The notes under the pieces: model-generated
Seen by the model: only the letters and a program-made list of their open reading frames with translations
The model's database searches: none
What the model was told of the DNA's origin: nothing
Virus record (IMG/VR): IMGVR_UViG_3300045996_001841
Span: 1-59,291 of that record
Source of the DNA: a virus
Taxonomy: Duplodnaviria; Caudoviricetes
DNA: 59,291 nt
Strand: one strand, 5' to 3'
Program-made: the position numbers and the translations under genes
Part shown: positions 2,545 through 59,291 of the stretch, piece by piece
How the letters are laid out: every line of letters begins with the position of its first letter
How positions within the stretch are numbered: the stretch's first letter is position 1

Positions 2545-2864
2545 CCAAGACAGAAGAACAAAGCTGGCAGGAAGCCCGACGACTTGAGCAGGAATACGCG
2601 CGGCAGGTCAGCGATGATCGCACGGATAAGGCGCTCGACATTTCACCGTCAGCGGTGATGGCATCGTGTGCGTTTTGCGGAGTTGATTACACTCACCAAA
2701 TCGCTACGTGCGGGACGTGCGGTCGCTCGACATGCCCAGATCATAGGGTCAACGACCACGCCTCACGCTGCAATGACTGCGCGGTAGCGTTTTACACCAT
2801 TACGCGAGAGCAGATAGCAGAGCTGCTTTCAAGTCCCGGCGCACCGTTTCAATTGGAGGAATAA
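2541..2864 (+). CDS. Cys-rich (Zn-binding) hypothetical protein
   Basis: CxxC, CxxC, CxxH and CxxC motifs; AAGGAG SD. Confidence 0.7.
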   Translation: MTKTEEQSWQEARRLEQEYARQVSDDRTDKALDISPSAVMASCAFCGVDYTHQIATCGTCGRSTCPDHRVNDHASRCNDCAVAFYTITREQIAELLSSPGAPFQLEE

Positions 2865-2989
2865 TGTTCACCCTCACCTATCACCTACACGGCCGGCTGA
2901 CGATCGAAGTCCTCACCTATTCGCAGGCGCGCCTGCGAATGGCGACGCTCGACGCGCGAGGGATTCCCTCCACGTTAACCCTGAGGTAA
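2864..2989 (+). CDS. Small hypothetical protein (41 aa)
   Basis: TAATG coupling at both ends; GGAGG SD. Confidence 0.55.
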   Translation: MFTLTYHLHGRLTIEVLTYSQARLRMATLDARGIPSTLTLR

Positions 2990-3228
2990 TGACAATGGCA
3001 GCAGGAATGATGCAAAAACCGGGAAGCAAGCTAGGACCGTGCAAGCAATGTAAACATAGAGACTGCCAGCAAACACGCGCGGATGCTGCGGCGTTGTGCA
3101 CGTTCTGTGACAAACCAATCGGTTATGGCGTTGGTTTCTACCGCTCGCGTGGAGCGCTTGCTCACGCACTGTGTTCTGAGGCGGCCGTCGATCGCAACGA
3201 TCCGAAGGTAACACTGTTTTTTGGTTGA
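2989..3228 (+). CDS. Cys-rich hypothetical protein
   Basis: CxxCxHxxC, CxxC and HxxC motifs. Confidence 0.65.
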   Translation: MTMAAGMMQKPGSKLGPCKQCKHRDCQQTRADAAALCTFCDKPIGYGVGFYRSRGALAHALCSEAAVDRNDPKVTLFFG

Positions 3229-3246
3229 TCTGAAAGGATAAGCGCC

Positions 3247-4095
3247 ATGTATACGCTGAATCGTTACCTCAAGGAAGCGCTAGACCACGGAACCCTGGAT
3301 TTTATGGGCCTGACGTTTGCCACCGACTACGCGGAACCTGGCTATACGGCCGGCGAAAAAGGCGTCGCGTTTGGCAACTGGAACGATCGAACGCGCTGGA
3401 ACCCTGAGACACAGCGATCGGAGCCTGTCAACGGGAAACTGGGCCCAAAAGGGTCCACAGTCCCCTCGAGGTTGGGCAAGGTCCTCGAGGCCGCGGGCTA
3501 TGAGATTGAATGGAGCGACGAATGGACCACGTGCGAGGACTGTAATCGCGCGATCCGCACGTCAGCGGATTCCTACGGATGGCGCGCGTCCTACGTGATG
3601 ATTGATGACTGCGCGATCGTGTGCGAGGACTGCGCAGTCAAAGATCCCGATACCCTGCTCGAGCAATACGTCAACGATCCGCATCGCGCGATGACCTTCG
3701 ATTTCGATTTCGAGGGGAACGGCTGGAAGAAATGGAACTCGGAGCGATTTGAAAACGGGTTTCACCCTGGACAGACGGACGATCCGCGCACGATTGCGAA
3801 AGAGGTTGAGGCGGACGGGTATCCGGAGTGGGTCTTCCATATTCCAGCCGTGGGGCAATTTGACATCCATTTCAACGTTTACGTGAAGGTCCGGCCAGCG
3901 CTCGAAGTGCTCGACCGCGCGATCGATCGCTTCGATCACACGGGTGAGGACCTGAACCTGGACCTGTATGGGGCGCGCGAAATCCTGGCAGCCTGCCGGG
4001 ATCATCTGGCCGGGTGCGATTACGTGAAGACCGATCGCCAACTACGCGCAGTGATCTCGGATCTGCTGTTGGACCTCGAGGCCGGCCGTCGCTGA
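3247..4095 (+). CDS. Early phage hypothetical protein with Zn ribbon
   Basis: 282 aa, two CEDC motifs, AAAGGA SD. Confidence 0.8.
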   Translation: MYTLNRYLKEALDHGTLDFMGLTFATDYAEPGYTAGEKGVAFGNWNDRTRWNPETQRSEPVNGKLGPKGSTVPSRLGKVLEAAGYEIEWSDEWTTCEDCNRAIRTSADSYGWRASYVMIDDCAIVCEDCAVKDPDTLLEQYVNDPHRAMTFDFDFEGNGWKKWNSERFENGFHPGQTDDPRTIAKEVEADGYPEWVFHIPAVGQFDIHFNVYVKVRPALEVLDRAIDRFDHTGEDLNLDLYGAREILAACRDHLAGCDYVKTDRQLRAVISDLLLDLEAGRR

Positions 4096-4155
4096 AGTCC
4101 TTGCACACGATCCACAACCCCTCGGGGTTGTGGATCGAATGGAGGGATCAGCCCT
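4089..4155 (+). ncRNA. Repeated structured intergenic RNA motif, copy 1
   Basis: Flanks identical to copy 2 and enclose a 30-nt hairpin at 4108-4137. Confidence 0.75.
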
Positions 4156-4178
4156 ACCACTGAAAGGAGCAATGCGCC

Positions 4179-4739
4179 ATGCGAACGCAACAAGATCACA
4201 AGGTCCGCGCGGTCAGCCTCGCCAACTTAGAGGCTATGTGCAATCGAGCCTCCGGCATGTGTCATCGGTTCTCCGTGTCCAAGGTGTCCCGATCGCGCGT
4301 GCACGTGGACTACTCGAACCCTGACGAATACGGGCACGAACGGCCGATTACCGCGGTCTTTCCCTGCATTCCAAACGATTTCGAGCCTGAGAACCCGATC
4401 GTCCTGATCGGCGCAATGCTGCGCACGATTGGCGGTGATGGTGATCCGGATTACGACTATCAGCAGTTCGATCCGATCGTCAGCGGGTCGGCGCTCTACC
4501 GCTCGAGGACAGACTGGCGGACCAGACAAGAGATCAGCGGCGATCGGTATCTCTGCCCCGATAACGTGGAGCGAACGGTCGATTGGAACCACTCTTACAC
4601 CGACGATCGGATGGCTGCCTTCAATGTGACGGCTGAAGTAAAGCCTCCGGATTATTGGGATCAGATTGGCGCGCGTCGCGTGTTTGTCTTCTTCCCCTGG
4701 TCGGATCTGACGCCCGTTCGCGCGGAGGTTCAATCATGA
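4179..4739 (+). CDS. Early hypothetical protein
   Basis: AAAGGAG SD; 186 aa. Confidence 0.75.
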   Translation: MRTQQDHKVRAVSLANLEAMCNRASGMCHRFSVSKVSRSRVHVDYSNPDEYGHERPITAVFPCIPNDFEPENPIVLIGAMLRTIGGDGDPDYDYQQFDPIVSGSALYRSRTDWRTRQEISGDRYLCPDNVERTVDWNHSYTDDRMAAFNVTAEVKPPDYWDQIGARRVFVFFPWSDLTPVRAEVQS

Positions 4740-5062
4740 CACCCCGCTTTTATCGCGCGGAGGGGCCTGTCCGATCGCTCCTGGTCCCGTGTCGGTTCGT
4801 CTGTTTTGCGAATCGTGAGATCACGACGGGGAAAGGCAAACGCACCAGGACGCGCGTGCAATGTGTCGCGTGGGAGGCCTGGAACCCCGATCCCACCCTC
4901 GAGGCCCACATGGCACGGCTGCCGGGATCGGGATCGTTCTACTGGTTGAATGCCATTCGCGTCCTGGTGGCGGCAAAGGCGGCAATGCGCGCCGATCCCA
5001 GCATTCACCAGATCAAGCTTGAAACGATTTCAGGACAGGAGATTGGCCGGTTGTATCGCTGA
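4736..5062 (+). CDS. Early hypothetical protein
   Basis: GGAGG SD and ATGA overlap (MTPRFYR...). Confidence 0.7.
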   Translation: MTPRFYRAEGPVRSLLVPCRFVCFANREITTGKGKRTRTRVQCVAWEAWNPDPTLEAHMARLPGSGSFYWLNAIRVLVAAKAAMRADPSIHQIKLETISGQEIGRLYR

Positions 5063-5122
5063 AGTCCTTGCACACGACAGACGAGCCTCGAGGCTCGTCT
5101 GTCGAATGGAGGGATCAGCCCT
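5056..5122 (+). ncRNA. Repeated structured intergenic RNA motif, copy 2
   Basis: Same flanks as copy 1 around a different perfect 30-nt palindrome at 5075-5104. Confidence 0.75.
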
Positions 5123-5142
5123 TCGACACAAAGGAGCAGCAG

Positions 5143-5481
5143 ATGGCAAGCGAACACGAAAACCTGCACGAGTTCTACGCGGCCACGAAGGCACAGCAGC
5201 CGGCAGAGGCCTGCCGGATCGCCTACACGATCGAGCTGACTGCGGACGAATACCGCTCAGCCGAATACATGAGTGCTCGAGGGTATCTCGGCTGCGTCAC
5301 GGAGCACGCCACGGAAACCGAGGATCGGGACGATGGATCCGTGGTTCTCAAGTTCACGGAGTCCGATGCCTGGAACGTGCAGCAGGTGTGTGAAGACGAC
5401 GAGCACGCGGTGTGGAGCCTCACTACCCCGTCCACGTCCCTCGGACAGAAGTTCCAAGCGTTCCTCGATCAAATTGTCTGA
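5143..5481 (+). CDS. Acidic early hypothetical protein
   Basis: AAAGGAG SD before ATG 5143 (MASEHENL...). Confidence 0.7.
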   Translation: MASEHENLHEFYAATKAQQPAEACRIAYTIELTADEYRSAEYMSARGYLGCVTEHATETEDRDDGSVVLKFTESDAWNVQQVCEDDEHAVWSLTTPSTSLGQKFQAFLDQIV

Positions 5482-5485
5482 GGGG

Positions 5486-5514
5486 TTGACAGAAAGCCTG
5501 TCGTTTGCTATATT
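5486..5514 (+). promoter_or_regulatory. sigma70-type early promoter with extended -10
   Basis: TTGACA-17 nt-TATATT, with TG two bases before the -10 box. Confidence 0.85.
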
Positions 5515-5556
5515 GCCTGTTAGAGACGACGGAGCAAGGCACAGCAGGAGGCCGGC

Positions 5557-5868
5557 ATGGTTGAAACACTCCCCGTGATCTTTCGCGCTGGCAAGGAACA
5601 CGGCCAGATCTGGATTACGGCCGTCTTCCCCACATTGCAGGGGACCGATGATCGGAACACGTTCACGATCTACCAGCACATAGGGCAGCATGGGGCCGGC
5701 CGCTACGAGTGGTATCGCCGGACCCGGCCGGCGCGCCCCTCGGAGTATGCGGATTTGCTCAAGGAACTGCGCGGGATCTACGAAACGCCGGGACCAGGAG
5801 ACACGCCAGCGATCCGCCTCGAGGTTCGACAGCGCATGCACGCGAGTTACCGCCGACAGCGAAGCTGA
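5557..5868 (+). CDS. Phage early hypothetical protein
   Basis: AGGAGG SD; VIFR...AVFP...HIGQH...TRPA.P.EY.DLLKEL pattern that I recognise from small phage proteins. Confidence 0.75.
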   Translation: MVETLPVIFRAGKEHGQIWITAVFPTLQGTDDRNTFTIYQHIGQHGAGRYEWYRRTRPARPSEYADLLKELRGIYETPGPGDTPAIRLEVRQRMHASYRRQRS

Positions 5869-5873
5869 AAGGA

Positions 5874-5932
5874 GGCCGAAACCCTCGAGCAGTCCTCGAG
5901 GGTCCGCACGTGAAGCGTGCGCTGATGAGGCT
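5874..5932 (+). ncRNA. Hammerhead ribozyme, type II
   Basis: GGCC-GAAA-stem III (CCCUCGAG/CUCGAGGG)-UC-stem I (CGCACG/CGUGCG)-CUGAUGA-GGCU. The full catalytic core is present, with predicted GUC cleavage after 5904. Confidence 0.92.
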
Positions 5933-5937
5933 ACACA

Positions 5938-6063
5938 ATGAAAACAGGTTACACGCGACTCAGGAAACGTGACTGGTATGTGCAGGGTGGGTTCAGCAAT
6001 CCGCGCCTCTTTCGCCGGATGCGCGGCGGCGTGTGGCACTACTACCGGCTGACCTACTACTAG
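5938..6063 (+). CDS. Small basic/aromatic protein (41 aa)
   Basis: MKTGYTRLRKRDWYVQGGFSNPRLFRRMRGGVWHYYRLTYY; GAGG SD lies inside the ribozyme 3' end. Confidence 0.6.
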   Translation: MKTGYTRLRKRDWYVQGGFSNPRLFRRMRGGVWHYYRLTYY

Positions 6064-6120
6064 AGAGAGAGGGCGCAATCCCGCGCCGGCAGTCCGGCCC
6101 GAATGGGCTGAGGTGACGCC

Positions 6121-6876
6121 ATGAAGAAAACAGACAAAGACAAGCAGGACGCGATCGATCAACTGCGGGAATGGCTGAAGCCCGGGGATACGGTCTATAC
6201 GATCCTCGAGCACGTGTCCCGGTCCGGCATGAGTCGCACGATCCGCGTAGTCGTGCCTTACGTGAGGGACGACGGCAGGATCGATCACTTGCACCCCAAT
6301 TACAGCGTAGCGAAGGCGATCGGCGCGCGGCGCAAGGGCGACGGGATCGTCATGGGCGGCTGCGGGATGGATATGGGCTTCGCCCTGGTCTATGAGCTGT
6401 CCTCCGTGCTCTATGGGCATCTCCGTTGCGAGGCCTGCGGCAAGTATCCCAGCGGGGAATACCGGACGATCATCGATGCAATGATTACCTCGTCGCGTGG
6501 CGCGGATCTCGTGATCACGTGCGAACACTGTCAGGAGCGGCTGTCCGGCGGCTATCAATGCCTCGGCAAAGGCAAGTGCCCCTCGAACTATCACGTCAAC
6601 CATCGGGATACGATCCAGTGCCCCGGAACCGAGGTGTATAACCCGGACGGGCCCAACACCGGCCATCGCTGTTACTGGCAGCGGGGGATCGGGTGGGTCA
6701 TTCCGAGTGATGAAACGGATCCGGCGCGTTTGGTCAATCCCGATCCGAGTGATGAGGCTTGGATCCGGATCTGTCCGACGTGCAACGGCACGGGCCGGAT
6801 TCCCAACCCCGAAGGCCCGGAGCGGTTCGATTTGCTCCACACGGACGGATACGCGCTCCGTCATAGGTGGCTGTAA
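6121..6876 (+). CDS. Phage hypothetical protein with Cys-rich insertions
   Basis: LKPGDTVYTILEHVSRSGMSR...GCGMDMGF core plus several CxxC motifs. Confidence 0.8.
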   Translation: MKKTDKDKQDAIDQLREWLKPGDTVYTILEHVSRSGMSRTIRVVVPYVRDDGRIDHLHPNYSVAKAIGARRKGDGIVMGGCGMDMGFALVYELSSVLYGHLRCEACGKYPSGEYRTIIDAMITSSRGADLVITCEHCQERLSGGYQCLGKGKCPSNYHVNHRDTIQCPGTEVYNPDGPNTGHRCYWQRGIGWVIPSDETDPARLVNPDPSDEAWIRICPTCNGTGRIPNPEGPERFDLLHTDGYALRHRWL

Positions 6877-7058
6877 TGTATCGCGTAAATTGGGACAACT
6901 GCGCGCATGCGTGCGGCACCTTTCCGGATCGGTTTGCTACGTATGAGGAGGCAGACGCCTACGGGCGCGCCTGGCAGGCTGAGATGGAAGCCGTCGATCC
7001 GGTTGATCCGGTTGAGGACGGCTACTCCTACGAAGTGATCGAGGAGCCGGAGCCATGA
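6876..7058 (+). CDS. Small acidic hypothetical protein
   Basis: TAATG coupling (MYRVNWDN...). Confidence 0.6.
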   Translation: MYRVNWDNCAHACGTFPDRFATYEEADAYGRAWQAEMEAVDPVDPVEDGYSYEVIEEPEP

Positions 7059-13647: not shown

Positions 13648-13874
13648 CTCCGAAACTGTGGAAGGTCCACCTTGAGTCCGCGGATGGTTCCCGCCGAATC
13701 ATCTACACGCGCTACCTCGGACGCTTCCTTCAGGATTGGCAGACCGGGCGCTTGTATGAATACATCGCGATCGATCTCCATGCTGGCGAGGCCACGGCAC
13801 GGTCCTTGATGGGACCGAGCCATGCGAAAATTGCTCGTTCCCCTGCTCCTGTTGCGCCTCTCCGTCCCCGCTGA
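13644..13874 (+). CDS. Hypothetical protein
   Basis: ATGA coupling (MTPKLWKVHL...). Confidence 0.45.
   Translation: MTPKLWKVHLESADGSRRIIYTRYLGRFLQDWQTGRLYEYIAIDLHAGEATARSLMGPSHAKIARSPAPVAPLRPR
13790..13810 (+). promoter_or_regulatory. sigma54-like -24/-12 promoter (variant -12)
   Basis: GGCCAC-GGCACGGTCCTTGA; predicted +1 near 13821, next to ATG 13822. Confidence 0.5.
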
Positions 13875-15180
13875 GGGGCTGACCCGACTCGACATCCCCA
13901 ACTGCGTCGGCGCCGACAACAACGTCGCCGGTGGTTACGTGGCCTCCGTCCGAGACAGCCATCTCGAGACGCACGCCGGGCGGATTGAGCTGCCGCCGGG
14001 CGGCAACTTCCTCTACCCCACCATCGCGCGGGACTCCACCCGCTTCGCTGGCCTCGGGAACCTGAACGATCGGGTCTACGAGTCCGCCGGCGGATGGCAG
14101 GATCACGGCCTCGGGTTCGGCGTCAACCCGGTCATCTACGACGTGCGCGACGTGCTCCGGATCGTGTGGGGCCCGGGCACGCCGACCGGGAGCCAGGGCT
14201 GGCGCTACCTGGCCGACAACGGGAACCTCGTCACCGGTGACGAGTCCTACGCCGACCCGGCGCGCCACCTGTGGGAATACACGGACCGCGGCGACATCTC
14301 CTGCGGCCAGGGCGGCGACGAGAACGGGCTCCCGTGCCTCGTGCGCGGCCGGCGCGTGCAGGTCGAGCCCGGTATCGTGCGGTGGGTGGACTTCGATCGC
14401 GAGGGCGACACGCTGGCGCTGGCGTGGGTGCGGTTCGACACGGCCTCGTGCGGGCTGCTGTGGCTGACGGTCGCCGAACTCGAGGCGCTGCCGACGTTCA
14501 CGGTGCCCGGCGGCACGACCCCGCCGCCCCCGCCACCTCCCCCGCCGCCGCCCCCGCCCCCGCCCCCGGTGCAGGAGCCGGCGAGCTTGCTTGACACGGT
14601 GCGCGCGGTGCGCGCCCGGGTGGACGGCCAGCCGACGAACCCGCAGCTCGCGGCCATGCTGAACGAGATCGCCTGGCTCCATCGGGCCGAGGGGTGGGGC
14701 TTGTCGAAGAAGCCGGGTGGGCACAATTGCCCGACGCCGCCGCCGGCCGCGGTCCTGATTGCCTGTGACATCCTCCACCACAAGCCGACGAACCTCCTCT
14801 ACGACGTCTTCGGGAGCGTGGAGGCCGGCGCGACGCCGCAGTGGGGAAGCGTCGGACCCCCGCTGACGCCGGACCGGGAGTGGCTGGCACCCATCGCCCC
14901 CTCGGGCACGGAGCCTGAGCCGCCGCCCCCAACCGATGACCTGAAGCTCGTGGTCGCGGTGCTCCAGGCCCGGGTCCTGGCCCTCGAGGAGACGGTGCGA
15001 AGGGTCGACGACACCTTGGTGTCGATGGGGCAGCGCGTAGGCGCCCTGGAGAACGGCGTGCCCGAGGACCGGGTGTCAGCCCTGATCGACCAGGCGATCG
15101 CCTCGCTCCGGGTCACGGGACGCACGGAGCGGGCCTTCTTCGGACATTCTCACCAGGTCGAACTGAAGGTCGTGCGGTGA
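13822..15180 (+). CDS. Secreted multidomain protein with poly-Pro linker and C-terminal coiled coil
   Basis: 452 aa; signal-like N-terminus, beta-rich domain, long Pro run (14521-14568), paired Cys. Confidence 0.75.
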   Translation: MRKLLVPLLLLRLSVPAEGLTRLDIPNCVGADNNVAGGYVASVRDSHLETHAGRIELPPGGNFLYPTIARDSTRFAGLGNLNDRVYESAGGWQDHGLGFGVNPVIYDVRDVLRIVWGPGTPTGSQGWRYLADNGNLVTGDESYADPARHLWEYTDRGDISCGQGGDENGLPCLVRGRRVQVEPGIVRWVDFDREGDTLALAWVRFDTASCGLLWLTVAELEALPTFTVPGGTTPPPPPPPPPPPPPPPPVQEPASLLDTVRAVRARVDGQPTNPQLAAMLNEIAWLHRAEGWGLSKKPGGHNCPTPPPAAVLIACDILHHKPTNLLYDVFGSVEAGATPQWGSVGPPLTPDREWLAPIAPSGTEPEPPPPTDDLKLVVAVLQARVLALEETVRRVDDTLVSMGQRVGALENGVPEDRVSALIDQAIASLRVTGRTERAFFGHSHQVELKVVR

Positions 15181-15386
15181 ACAACACGTTCTGGCGGGAC
15201 CGACATCAGCGCTTCTTCCTCGAGACACCCCGCCGAATGCGTCGGACGGTCCGGGTCGCCGAGTCTCCACTCGGCGGCCCGAACTTAATCATGCGCGCGA
15301 TATACGAGGCGACGTCCCGGCGCCCGCTCCAGAGGTGGTGGGCGTGGGTGTCACCGCGCTGCAAGGCTTGGTTCGCCCGCTTTTGA
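15177..15386 (+). CDS. Small basic hypothetical protein
   Basis: GTGA coupling. Confidence 0.45.
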   Translation: MNNTFWRDRHQRFFLETPRRMRRTVRVAESPLGGPNLIMRAIYEATSRRPLQRWWAWVSPRCKAWFARF

Positions 15387-17872: not shown

Positions 17873-17901
17873 TTGACGGGCTCGTAGCCCGTCTGTAGAC
17901 T
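17873..17901 (+). promoter_or_regulatory. sigma70-type promoter containing an inverted repeat
   Basis: TTGACG-17 nt-TAGACT; GACGGGCT-cgt-AGCCCGTC overlaps the -35 box and spacer. Confidence 0.6.
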
Positions 17902-58798: not shown

Positions 58799-59291
58799 CA
58801 CTCAGCCTCCACCGTTTCGACCTTGATCTGCGGCGTGCCCATTCCGGGTAGCATCACACCCACATTGACCTGCACGCCGGCGGGTCCGGCCTCCTTGACG
58901 ACCGGTTTCACGGCGCCACCGTGAATGAGCGCCCACTCCGCGGGCTTCGTATCACCCTCGGCCGCCGCCACTTTGGCGCCAATCAGGTGAATCTGCGCGT
59001 ATTCGTCCAGGTTCCGCTCGAGGCGGACCTTCGCGGCGCGCTTGATCTCAGCCAGCGTGCGGAGCGCCTGCACGTGATCGGCGCAGTAGACCGCCGATTC
59101 GGGGATCAGCACCATGCAGACCTGTTTCGACTCCGGATCGACGTGCCCGCAGCGCGCGGATCCAGGCGGAATCAGCGCTTCGGCCGGCGCGCGGGGCGCG
59201 GTGAGCGCCTGTTTCAGGCTCTCGGACACCGGTGGCGGACCCGGGACCTGTTCGGTGCCCGCGGCGACCTGTGCGACGAGCGCGGCCAGGG
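58798..59291 (-). CDS. Putative terminase small subunit (true start at 149 across the junction)
   Basis: Position upstream of terL; helical core GDTKPAEWAL; C-terminal VQVNVGV strand; Cys/His cluster. Confidence 0.65.
   Translation of the reverse strand, partial: LAALVAQVAAGTEQVPGPPPVSESLKQALTAPRAPAEALIPPGSARCGHVDPESKQVCMVLIPESAVYCADHVQALRTLAEIKRAAKVRLERNLDEYAQIHLIGAKVAAAEGDTKPAEWALIHGGAVKPVVKEAGPAGVQVNVGVMLPGMGTPQIKVETVEAE
59165..59291. repeat. Terminal direct repeat, copy 2
   Basis: Identical to 1-127. Confidence 0.95.

Follow-up and report, generated by a model that had tools for sequence, protein, structure and literature searches.

A repeated stem-loop in the early operon of an uncultured phage belongs to an uncatalogued family found at gene junctions of GC-rich phages

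What is a 67-nt sequence that stands twice at gene junctions of one phage operon, with identical flanks and a hairpin that differs between the copies? Most of the host-takeover and anti-defence genes without an assigned role are carried in phage early operons, and the order of their expression is poorly understood beyond a few model phages. The window analysed here (the whole stretch of DNA, 59,291 nucleotides) comprises an entire phage genome of 59 kb, terminal repeats included. An earlier note on it had described the repeat as a conserved, structured and intercistronic element of no known Rfam family, and our analysis supports each of these points.

The two copies and their fold

Both copies lie on the plus strand inside one early operon, which is probably driven from a sigma-70-like promoter at 1918-1946 (+; 11 of 12 consensus matches). 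A near-twin of this site at 5486-5514, also recognised by consensus scan only, would start the next transcription unit. Copy 1 (4089-4155) contains the UGA stop (4093-4095) of a 282-aa gene (3247-4095), and copy 2 (5056-5122) contains, at the equivalent position, the UGA stop (5060-5062) of a 108-aa gene (4736-5062). In both, the stop ends 6 nt before UGCACA. Two genes form a unit between the copies, bordered by 19 and 18 identical bases. Each copy precedes a gene with its own RBS, AAAGGAGCA: at 4163-4171 (feature 4163-4181) for the 186-aa gene at 4179-4739, which begins with the AUG at 4179, and at 5130-5138 (feature 5130-5145) for the 112-aa gene at 5143-5481, which begins with the AUG at 5143. 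All these genes are on the plus strand, and the stops, boxes and starts are where the earlier note had placed them. Start and stop codons overlap at 4 of the 7 operon junctions; the operon genes are therefore otherwise tightly coupled.

The two repeats and the identity of their flanks were borne out by flank scans. Each flank occurs exactly twice in the window, even with up to three mismatches allowed, for 0.06 and 0.05 occurrences expected by chance, and two or more matches were obtained in 0 of 100 shuffles. The conserved 5' flank UCCUUGCACA (4098-4107 in copy 1, 5065-5074 in copy 2) carries UCCUU and CA, and the conserved 3' flank AAUGGAGGGA (4138-4147 and 5105-5114) carries a Shine-Dalgarno-type GGAGG. 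Between them stands the variable upper hairpin (4108-4137 and 5075-5104).

The predicted fold starts at its base with a GCUGA/UCAGC helix that includes the UGA stop (4091-4095 with 4148-4152 in copy 1), followed by an AG bulge. Above it come UCCUU/AGGGA with one U.G pair (AGGGA at 4143-4147), a G.G mismatch, CA/UG (4104-4105 with 4140-4141), a 2x2 internal loop and, at the top, a 13-bp upper stem closed by a 4-nt loop. Four of the five bases of GGAGG (4141-4145 in copy 1) are paired. This fold agrees with the flank-to-flank pairing and fixed bulges described earlier. The folding energies are -48.8 and -47.1 kcal/mol (z-scores -4.50 and -4.64), and 0 of 200 shuffles fold as well. All 25 pairs form in each copy (50 of 50 cells). 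The same note had called the hairpin fully covarying. All of the differences between the upper stems are indeed compensated, but only 5 of the 13 pairs differ, and 14 of 500 shuffles equal that result.

At the gathering score, Rfam 15 gave 0 matches over the whole window. With E values up to 10, the region 3900-5300 matched two microRNA models only, with scores well short of their thresholds (26.6 vs. 56.4 bits and 17.4 vs. 80 bits). A self-cleaving motif had been proposed for the element. Like several known ribozyme classes, it is conserved and located between phage genes, and its internal-loop bases are invariant. Nevertheless, a single hairpin with 1x1 and 2x2 loops offers neither a junction nor a pseudoknot, and the ribozyme models of Rfam gave no match even at E up to 10. 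We consider a small self-cleaving ribozyme extremely improbable.

Several other candidates were dropped. Mimicry of 16S rRNA reached 7 of 8 and 6 of 8 bases at its best place; a stricter scan with one mismatch per flank found nothing in 16S rRNA, and the same scan matched 48 of 3000 shuffles. Stop readthrough or bypassing would extend the upstream protein by 6 to 253 codons in an inconsistent frame.

A stem-loop family in other phages

We searched for relatives with covariance models. The first, R1, was built from the two window copies alone, which score 96.3 (copy 1) and 97.7 bits (copy 2). It matched four other records (L016, L017, L018, and L024; up to 29 bits, E 7.5e-5). A second model, R2, additionally matched L020 and L021. 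The window copies belong to its seed, so that their R2 scores (52.3 bits for copy 1, core 4094-4148; 52.1 bits for copy 2, core 5061-5115) are scores of seed members. The covariance-model search thus bore out the existence of viral relatives, all in uncultured phages. A flank pattern taken from the other lineages then matched 97 stretches of the viral collection, of which 8 loci were convincing (L053, L046, L101, L047, L050, L064, L127, and L069). Ten stretches of the L045 type were discarded, being inside an open reading frame, and L080 could be placed neither in nor out of the family. In genome contigs, the same pattern matched at least 120 stretches; among the matches listed, only two have stems, which are weak (6 bp), and the two matches in L202 have no hairpin. 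Searched with the window's own flanks, exactly or nearly so, the viral, metagenome and genome collections gave no match, and the window-type pattern gave four viral stretches, all without the hairpin. Five carrier loci and positions 1400-2600 of L017 gave 0 matches with Rfam. A literature search returned no description of the motif, and the two flank strings together gave primer coincidences only.

In the shared core, a stop codon is followed by a 2-9 nt spacer that ends in CC, then by UGCACA, a variable 8-14 bp hairpin and (G/A)AUGGAGG. The number of copies per record varies from 1 to 15, and one phage lineage carries 15 copies within 8.5 kb, at nearly every gene junction. The window copies have the flanks, the compensated hairpin and the stop-adjacent placement on the gene strand that define the family. 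They are divergent members of this uncatalogued family of stem-loops from the early operons of uncultured, GC-rich phages. What sets them apart from the other lineages is an A instead of a G before AUGG, a C-G closing pair and the lack of a nearby AUG.

Covariation was counted on 24 aligned copies from 9 records and placement on 32 copies; since copies within a genome are related by duplication, these counts are not independent events. Overall, 96.2% of the cells pair, for 37-47% in controls with slid alignments. Thirteen of 17 pairs are changed on both sides (92 cells), which 0 of 500 shuffles equalled. UGCACA and AUGGA are invariant in all 24 copies and the following GG in 23, and this invariant set includes unpaired bases and pairs that never covary, whereas the upper stem varies freely by comparison. 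All five core lower-stem pairs can form in 24 of 24 rows; in the single GGAAG copy, a U stands opposite the A. The helix measures 25 bp, with interruptions, in the window and about 16-21 bp in other copies. The lower helix extends over the stop codon in 17 of 31 minimum-energy folds, and a family-wide helix over the stop codon was rejected as not significant (as low a value arose in 442 of 5000 permutations and in 180 of 1000 shuffles).

Placement is equally regular. All 32 copies run in the direction of the reading frames beside them, and this also holds for the copies of L053, L046, L047, and L069 on the minus strand of their locus. In 31 copies, a stop codon ends 2-9 nt before UGCACA; in the 32nd, the preceding stop is that of a mini-ORF of 4 codons. 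Of 31 copies, 28 have 8-12 nt between the stop and the upper hairpin. An AUG lies 5-10 nt past GGAGG in 23 of 32 copies. The nine others, both window copies among them, have no start codon at a usable distance, and in L046 one copy is followed by a terminator-like hairpin and not by a gene. In these nine copies, where GGAGG cannot be the RBS of the next gene, it is nevertheless kept in eight, the ninth having GGAAG. Three points had escaped the earlier note: the Shine-Dalgarno-type GGAGG of the 3' flank is paired with a CCU(U) tract, this tract adjoins the stop codon, and other phages carry members of the same family, in most of which GGAGG would be the RBS of the gene that follows.

These data also bear on a role at the DNA level, i.e. 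as a portable linker or hot spot of recombination through which small early-gene cassettes are shuffled, or as a small mobile palindrome, with secondary effects on expression. The hairpins of one genome resemble each other, but those of different lineages do not, a pattern that suggests copying inside genomes. Both loop orientations are seen, in comparisons of copies as well as of orthologous sites. L017 differs from L024 and L016 by an indel with a breakpoint 5 nt upstream of one copy, L053 has tandem copies with a 4-codon remnant ORF, and the two-gene unit of the window is bordered by the 19 and 18 identical bases already mentioned. As the carriers have no common proteins, the element may have moved horizontally. 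However, the strict gene-strand orientation, the excess of G.U over A.C in the gene-strand helices (30 vs. 5) and the nucleotide-exact placement relative to stops and starts point to RNA. The phage genome has no match to a tyrosine recombinase/integrase (PF00589) or to a Y1 (HUH) transposase (PF01797), and the element ends have no core-site motif. In two soil DNA runs (X1, possibly the window's own sample, and X2), contigs span both copies, with no difference inside and no joints. A third soil run (X3) gave little coverage.

Integron attC sites have a consensus core motif. Like the element, they are imperfect palindromes in which the ends are conserved, the centre varies and some bases are unpaired, but they lack its strict tie to the gene strand and to stops and starts. 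The core consensus matched three times in 2591-5652, at chance level and never at the element ends. With neither enzyme family found in the genome nor the core motif at the element ends, a site of integron type or of REP type (which goes with a RAYT transposase) was rejected. A role at the DNA level is accordingly rated as decidedly improbable, and the gene-cassette recombination site suggested earlier as unlikely; the copies may still serve as passive recombination points.

Predicted masking of a Shine-Dalgarno-type sequence and its possible roles

Because AGG(G) pairs back to CCU(U), GGAGG is held in a weak lower stem, interrupted by the G.G mismatch and the 2x2 loop, under a strong upper stem. 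In free RNA, its mean unpaired probability is 0.21, with four of five bases paired (n = 32). We tentatively favour, at a little less than an even chance, a cis-acting, sense-strand mRNA element that masks this Shine-Dalgarno-type sequence until the ribosome terminating just upstream opens it. With the stop codon in its A site, this ribosome would cover the 5' flank and melt the lower stem, while the upper hairpin, which begins 8-12 nt past the stop, would stay intact. The freed GGAGG would then adjoin the terminating ribosome, and translation of the next cistron would be tied to the previous termination. The stable hairpin would probably also protect the 3' end of the upstream message. On this model, the element probably ties the expression of neighbouring genes together.

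In the window, the AAAGGAG of the next gene is located further downstream, and UCCUU can pair with either GGAGGG or AAAGGAG. The opening step is therefore predicted to unmask the real RBS. When the 5' flank was held single-stranded in folding, the unpaired probability of this RBS rose from 0.34 to 0.52 (copy 1) and from 0.25 to 0.75 (copy 2). Across the family, exposure of GGAGG with the flank open has a mean of only 0.43 and scatters from 0.001 to 0.905; in both window copies it falls below 0.01 because GGAGGG refolds with CCCU. The start-less copies (9 of 32) and the terminator-like hairpin of L046 also count against coupling.

These same copies suit a close rival, in which a host RNase III-type enzyme would cut in or near the internal loops. 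The early polycistronic RNA would be split, the upstream message capped at its 3' end by a protective hairpin and the downstream RBS region freed. We regard such processing as possible but somewhat unlikely. The element is intercistronic in an early operon. In the window, where a promoter-like site lies upstream, its interrupted helix of 25 bp stands between genes, as in T7-type sites. Its internal loops are conserved while the upper stem is free to vary, and the early intergenic regions of T7 fold into comparable loop-interrupted hairpins, with a sequence common to the sites. The phage genome has no RNase III gene, so the host enzyme would be used. On the other hand, processing needs neither a fixed distance of 2-9 nt from the stop nor an invariant GGAGG, nor a mini-ORF kept between tandem copies, and the helices of several copies are shorter than two turns. 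R2 revealed no sequence or structure likeness in the T7 early region (best score 10.6 bits, E 0.18). For the T7 folds we used positions that we take to be those of the RNase III sites, the T7 record carrying no such annotation. The T7 sites share with the element the repetition of intercistronic hairpins in early polycistronic RNA, in which an internal loop separates the upper from the lower stem. Yet T7 conserves the upper stem, where the present element conserves the flanks, and its sites have no fixed stop-codon distance or paired GGAGG.

Simple masking is also insufficient in one respect, since the unpaired UGCACA/GAU bases are invariant in phages without a detectable common protein. This points to a sequence-specific partner. 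Such a partner could be an RNA-binding protein of the host or phage, e.g. a translational repressor or activator of early genes, for which the element would be the operator, read at the UGCACA/GAUGG junction at the hairpin base. The invariance of UGCACA, AUGGA and, in all but one copy, GG, including unpaired and non-covarying positions, the comparative freedom of the upper stem and the 1 to 15 copies per record would fit an operator. Against this, no common phage-encoded partner was found by blastp (E 1e-6): no protein family is present in all 9 carrier records, or even in more than three. The sole family shared three ways, that of the 282-aa gene at 3247-4095, is missing from 5 of 5 other carriers tested, and co-occurrence of the element with this protein was rejected. 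An operator appears improbable. Relatives found through the 282-aa protein are at most 47% identical. The element is absent from three cultured actinophages with a homologue (one 16.9-bit match was judged to be chance), and a blastn search with 3200-6900 gave no match in isolate phages.

Returning to the opening of the lower stem by the terminating ribosome, an extended version may be considered, which we hold to be unlikely. The element would be a portable hand-over module: with the lower stem melted, the ribosome would be passed over the intact hairpin to a tethering GGAGG, so that the chain of early genes would be translated in relay, and the UGCACA/GAU junction would be read by the ribosome or some factor. 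Such a module being uniform, it would also provide a joint for swapping early anti-host genes. It would be a bacterial counterpart of the termination-reinitiation and shunting of eukaryotic viruses.

Comparison with known systems and significance

The start-associated sequences (SAS) and ESAS of cluster K mycobacteriophages are also multi-copy and orientation-biased, with a conserved box that has a Shine-Dalgarno core a few bases before the starts of non-structural genes, and inverted repeats often precede this box at a variable spacer. Their function is still unexplained, and their authors found little support for RNA hairpins in the ESAS arms. In contrast, the pairs of the present element are compensated, its consensus differs, and it also possesses a conserved 5' box linked to the upstream stop. 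At up to two mismatches, the 13-bp SAS consensus was not found next to starts in the window; its single match, on the minus strand at 17878-17890, is at chance level (1.47 expected; at least one in 73 of 100 shuffles).

Hairpins that mask an RBS until an upstream ribosome or heat opens them are known from translational coupling in RNA phages and operons and from ROSE-type thermometers. Here too, non-canonical positions weaken the helix in which the Shine-Dalgarno sequence is paired, and opening would control initiation. However, those hairpins are single and gene-specific, whereas the present element, with its invariant flanks, is a portable module that occupies as many as 15 junctions of one genome and recurs in unrelated phages. 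The ROSE models of Rfam gave no match. The promoter-early stem-loop (PeSL) cassettes of T4-type phages are repeated regulatory stem-loops beside small accessory early genes, with potential modular shuffling. The element likewise forms repeated stem-loop modules flanking small early genes, but PeSLs carry a promoter, while it carries an RBS-type box inside the operon.

The element is a compact RNA module with invariant flanks, strong compensatory support and nucleotide-exact placement between stop and start, and it recurs in phages without detectable common proteins. For the unexplained start-associated sequences of mycobacteriophages, it provides a parallel that can be tested. If coupling or processing is true, it would give a general rule for reading such operons, a ready-made part for multi-gene constructs in GC-rich bacteria, and a marker of early gene arrays in viral metagenomes.

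The two window copies and their operon

Two copies of the element lie on the + strand, at 4089-4155 and 5056-5122, where the earlier note had placed them. Each flank occurs exactly twice in the window, with no other occurrence even at 3 mismatches (about 0.05 expected; 0 of 100 shuffles gave two). Both copies are predicted to fold into a long interrupted hairpin (z-scores of -4.5 and -4.6). From the base upwards, it comprises a helix GCUGA/UCAGC that includes the UGA stop, an AG bulge, a helix UCCUU/AGGGA with one U.G pair, a G.G mismatch, a short CA/UG helix, a CA/AA internal loop and an upper stem of 13 bp with a 4-base loop. All 25 pairs are formed in each copy. The earlier observation is borne out, except that the description of the hairpin as fully covarying was too strong: five upper-stem pairs differ between the copies, all five being compensated, and the other eight are identical. 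The motif had also been assigned to no known RNA family, in agreement with Rfam, which gave 0 matches at gathering thresholds and, at E<=10, two sub-threshold microRNA artefacts only; no description of it was found in the papers searched either. R1, a covariance model built from these two copies, detected no further copy in the window (next best, 18.6 bits).

The record is a 59,291-base virus genome (64% GC) with direct terminal repeats, rated complete, the 127-bp repeat being identical at 1-127 and 59165-59291. Genes on the + strand occupy about 1-31.4 kb; their products include a family A DNA polymerase (30.2% identity or less to those of isolate phages), a SNF2-type helicase and a primase-polymerase. 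The rest consists of large - strand genes with Ig-like and carbohydrate-binding domains. No tRNA was found in the window, nor any gene for an RNase III, a tyrosine recombinase or a Y1 transposase. A perfect 13-bp hairpin without a U-tract (15252-15283) lies in the 150-nt gap between a gene end at 15180 and a start at about 15335, and a tandem 12-nt C/G-rich repeat (14521-14568), within reading frame 13822-15180, would be translated into a proline-rich stretch. One related viral contig, of 63 kb, ends in tandem units of about 30 nt rich in CCCGGGCTCCCTGGTGCCGCC (L003, 6560-6749).

Copy 1 separates a 282-aa gene (3247-4095) from a 186-aa gene (4179-4739), and copy 2 a 108-aa gene (4736-5062) from a 112-aa gene (5143-5481). 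None of these four genes has a Pfam family; the 282-aa protein matches a PHROG of unknown function. Upstream, the non-coding region 1150-1950 contains tandem repeats of 14 bp (1286-1342), two copies of a 17-nt repeat (1424-1464) and several long-range inverted repeats; it terminates in a strong sigma-70-like promoter (1918-1946) and may be an origin or control region. A near-twin promoter-like site (TTGACA, 17 nt, TATATT, with TG) stands at 5486-5514, right after gene 5143-5481, and from these two sites both copies therefore belong to one early operon, in which 4 of 7 gene junctions are start/stop overlaps. In a third intercistronic gap (5866-5937), the stop codon directly precedes AAAGGAGG, after which comes an unrelated hairpin of 9 bp (5873-5910); with only 10.1 bits under R1, this gap was rejected as a family member. 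Isolate homologues of the 282-aa protein come mostly from actinobacteriophages (11 records), and the one in Rhodococcus phage ChewyVIII (L268, 793-2292) adjoins an annotated OCR-like antirestriction gene. Together, these give a weak hint as to function and host.

Members and covariation of the wider family

The exact flank patterns of the window gave no match elsewhere in viral, metagenome or genome collections. Relatives of the 282-aa protein, none above 47% identity, were collected from 5 loci of viruses and 37 of metagenomes, and R1 gave repeated matches on the gene strand in four metagenome loci. One of them, L017, holds 15 copies within 8.5 kb, at almost every gene junction, plus one degenerate copy; at 5262-5374, a family copy precedes a second, degenerate one, in which the hairpin is longer and TCCACA replaces TGCACA. 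R2, a later model seeded with 26 copies, brought in L020 and L021. The shared flank pattern occurs in 97 viral stretches and accompanies a real hairpin behind a stop codon in 8 viral loci, namely L053 (5 copies), L046, L101, L047, L050, L064, L127 and L069; another 10 loci, located within a coding frame, were set aside. Whole-record scans yielded 5, 1, 1, 1, 1, 1 and 1 copies. The family core runs from a stop codon through 2-9 nt with CC at their end, UGCACA and a hairpin of 8-14 bp to (G/A)AUGGAGG. The window copies form a divergent subtype (A before AUGG, a C-G closing pair and an extra lower helix), of which a window-type search found no member beyond the window. None of 5 other carriers tested has the 282-aa protein family, and no candidate for a phage-encoded partner emerged, no protein family being common to more than three of the nine carrier records.

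Across 24 copies drawn from 9 records, pairing holds in 96.2% of cells, and both partners change in 13 of the 17 pairs (92 cells), a level equalled by 0 of 500 shuffles; slid partners pair in 37-47%. The five core lower-stem pairs are never broken and vary only from C-G to U.G, with one exception, a U-A in the sole GGAAG copy. Neither UGCACA nor AUGGA varies among the 24 copies, and the subsequent GG is kept in 23. Hairpin sequences are similar inside a genome and unrelated across lineages. The loop reads CTCAC or its reverse complement GTGAG in L017 (1475-7195) and L016 (110-2900), which points to DNA-level flipping of the palindrome. In the L017 lineage, copies differ in this orientation, as do orthologous sites in phages that are 95-97% identical, so the loop sequence is free. 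Gene-strand helices contain 30 G.U against 5 A.C, and all copies are co-oriented with their genes, which favours a sense-strand RNA over a DNA cruciform or an antisense RNA. Because copies sharing a genome are related, neither the covariation nor the strand counts are independent.

Position between genes and possible function

A reading frame of 35 codons or more terminates 2-9 nt (median 3) before UGCACA in 31 of 32 copies, and in 28 of these 31 the upper hairpin starts 8-12 nt beyond the stop. The 32nd copy comes after the stop of a 4-codon mini-ORF, which is enclosed by tandem copies and has a GGAGG spacing of its own. In this tandem (L053, 11516-11614), the mini-ORF AUG lies 7 nt past GGAGG and its stop, directly followed by CC, 3 nt before UGCACA. 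GGAGG stands 5-10 nt upstream of an AUG in 23 of 32 copies; the remaining 9, including both window copies, have a separate downstream ribosome-binding site, a too-close AUG or no gene. Spare intergenic room is always 3' of the element, never 5'.

In the free RNA, 4 of the 5 GGAGG bases are predicted to be paired (mean unpaired probability 0.21, n=32). A ribosome positioned on the stop codon would occupy the 5' flank without reaching the upper hairpin, and the simplest reading would be that upstream termination unmasks the ribosome-binding sequence. With the 5' flank held open, predicted mean GGAGG exposure rises to only 0.43, with wide scatter; in the window copies, GGAGGG is predicted to refold with CCCU instead. 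Since UCCUU can pair with either box, the predicted unpaired probability of the AAAGGAG site rises under the same constraint from 0.34 to 0.52 in copy 1 and from 0.25 to 0.75 in copy 2. Two features count against a purely translational role: the 9 copies without a usable start, and the invariant unpaired bases, which suggest a sequence-specific partner. RNase III-type processing is therefore a close rival. Within the family, the best candidate substrate is the 25-bp helix of the window, and T7 early intergenic regions fold into comparable hairpins with internal loops, although R2 detects no likeness to them.

Recombination and described analogues

Four observations fit copies acting as recombination points: hairpins resemble one another inside a genome, tandem copies enclose a remnant ORF, an indel between 96-97% identical relatives has its breakpoint 5 nt upstream of one copy, and the window's two-gene unit is bracketed by identical flanks. 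However, where the element fills every operon gap, an indel of any gene would be bordered by copies in any case. In the contigs of two soil runs, both window copies are unchanged and joints are absent.

The nearest described analogue is the SAS/ESAS of cluster K mycobacteriophages, presented in the relevant passages of PMC3203893 and PMC12699233 as a conserved Shine-Dalgarno-containing box ahead of start codons, often with inverted repeats upstream, whose function was still unknown in 2025. Its consensus is unlike that of the present element, and its authors found little support for RNA hairpins. The element is real, a structured RNA module of clear anatomy and putative mechanism that turns up in unrelated phages, and it represents a new family of a kind already known.
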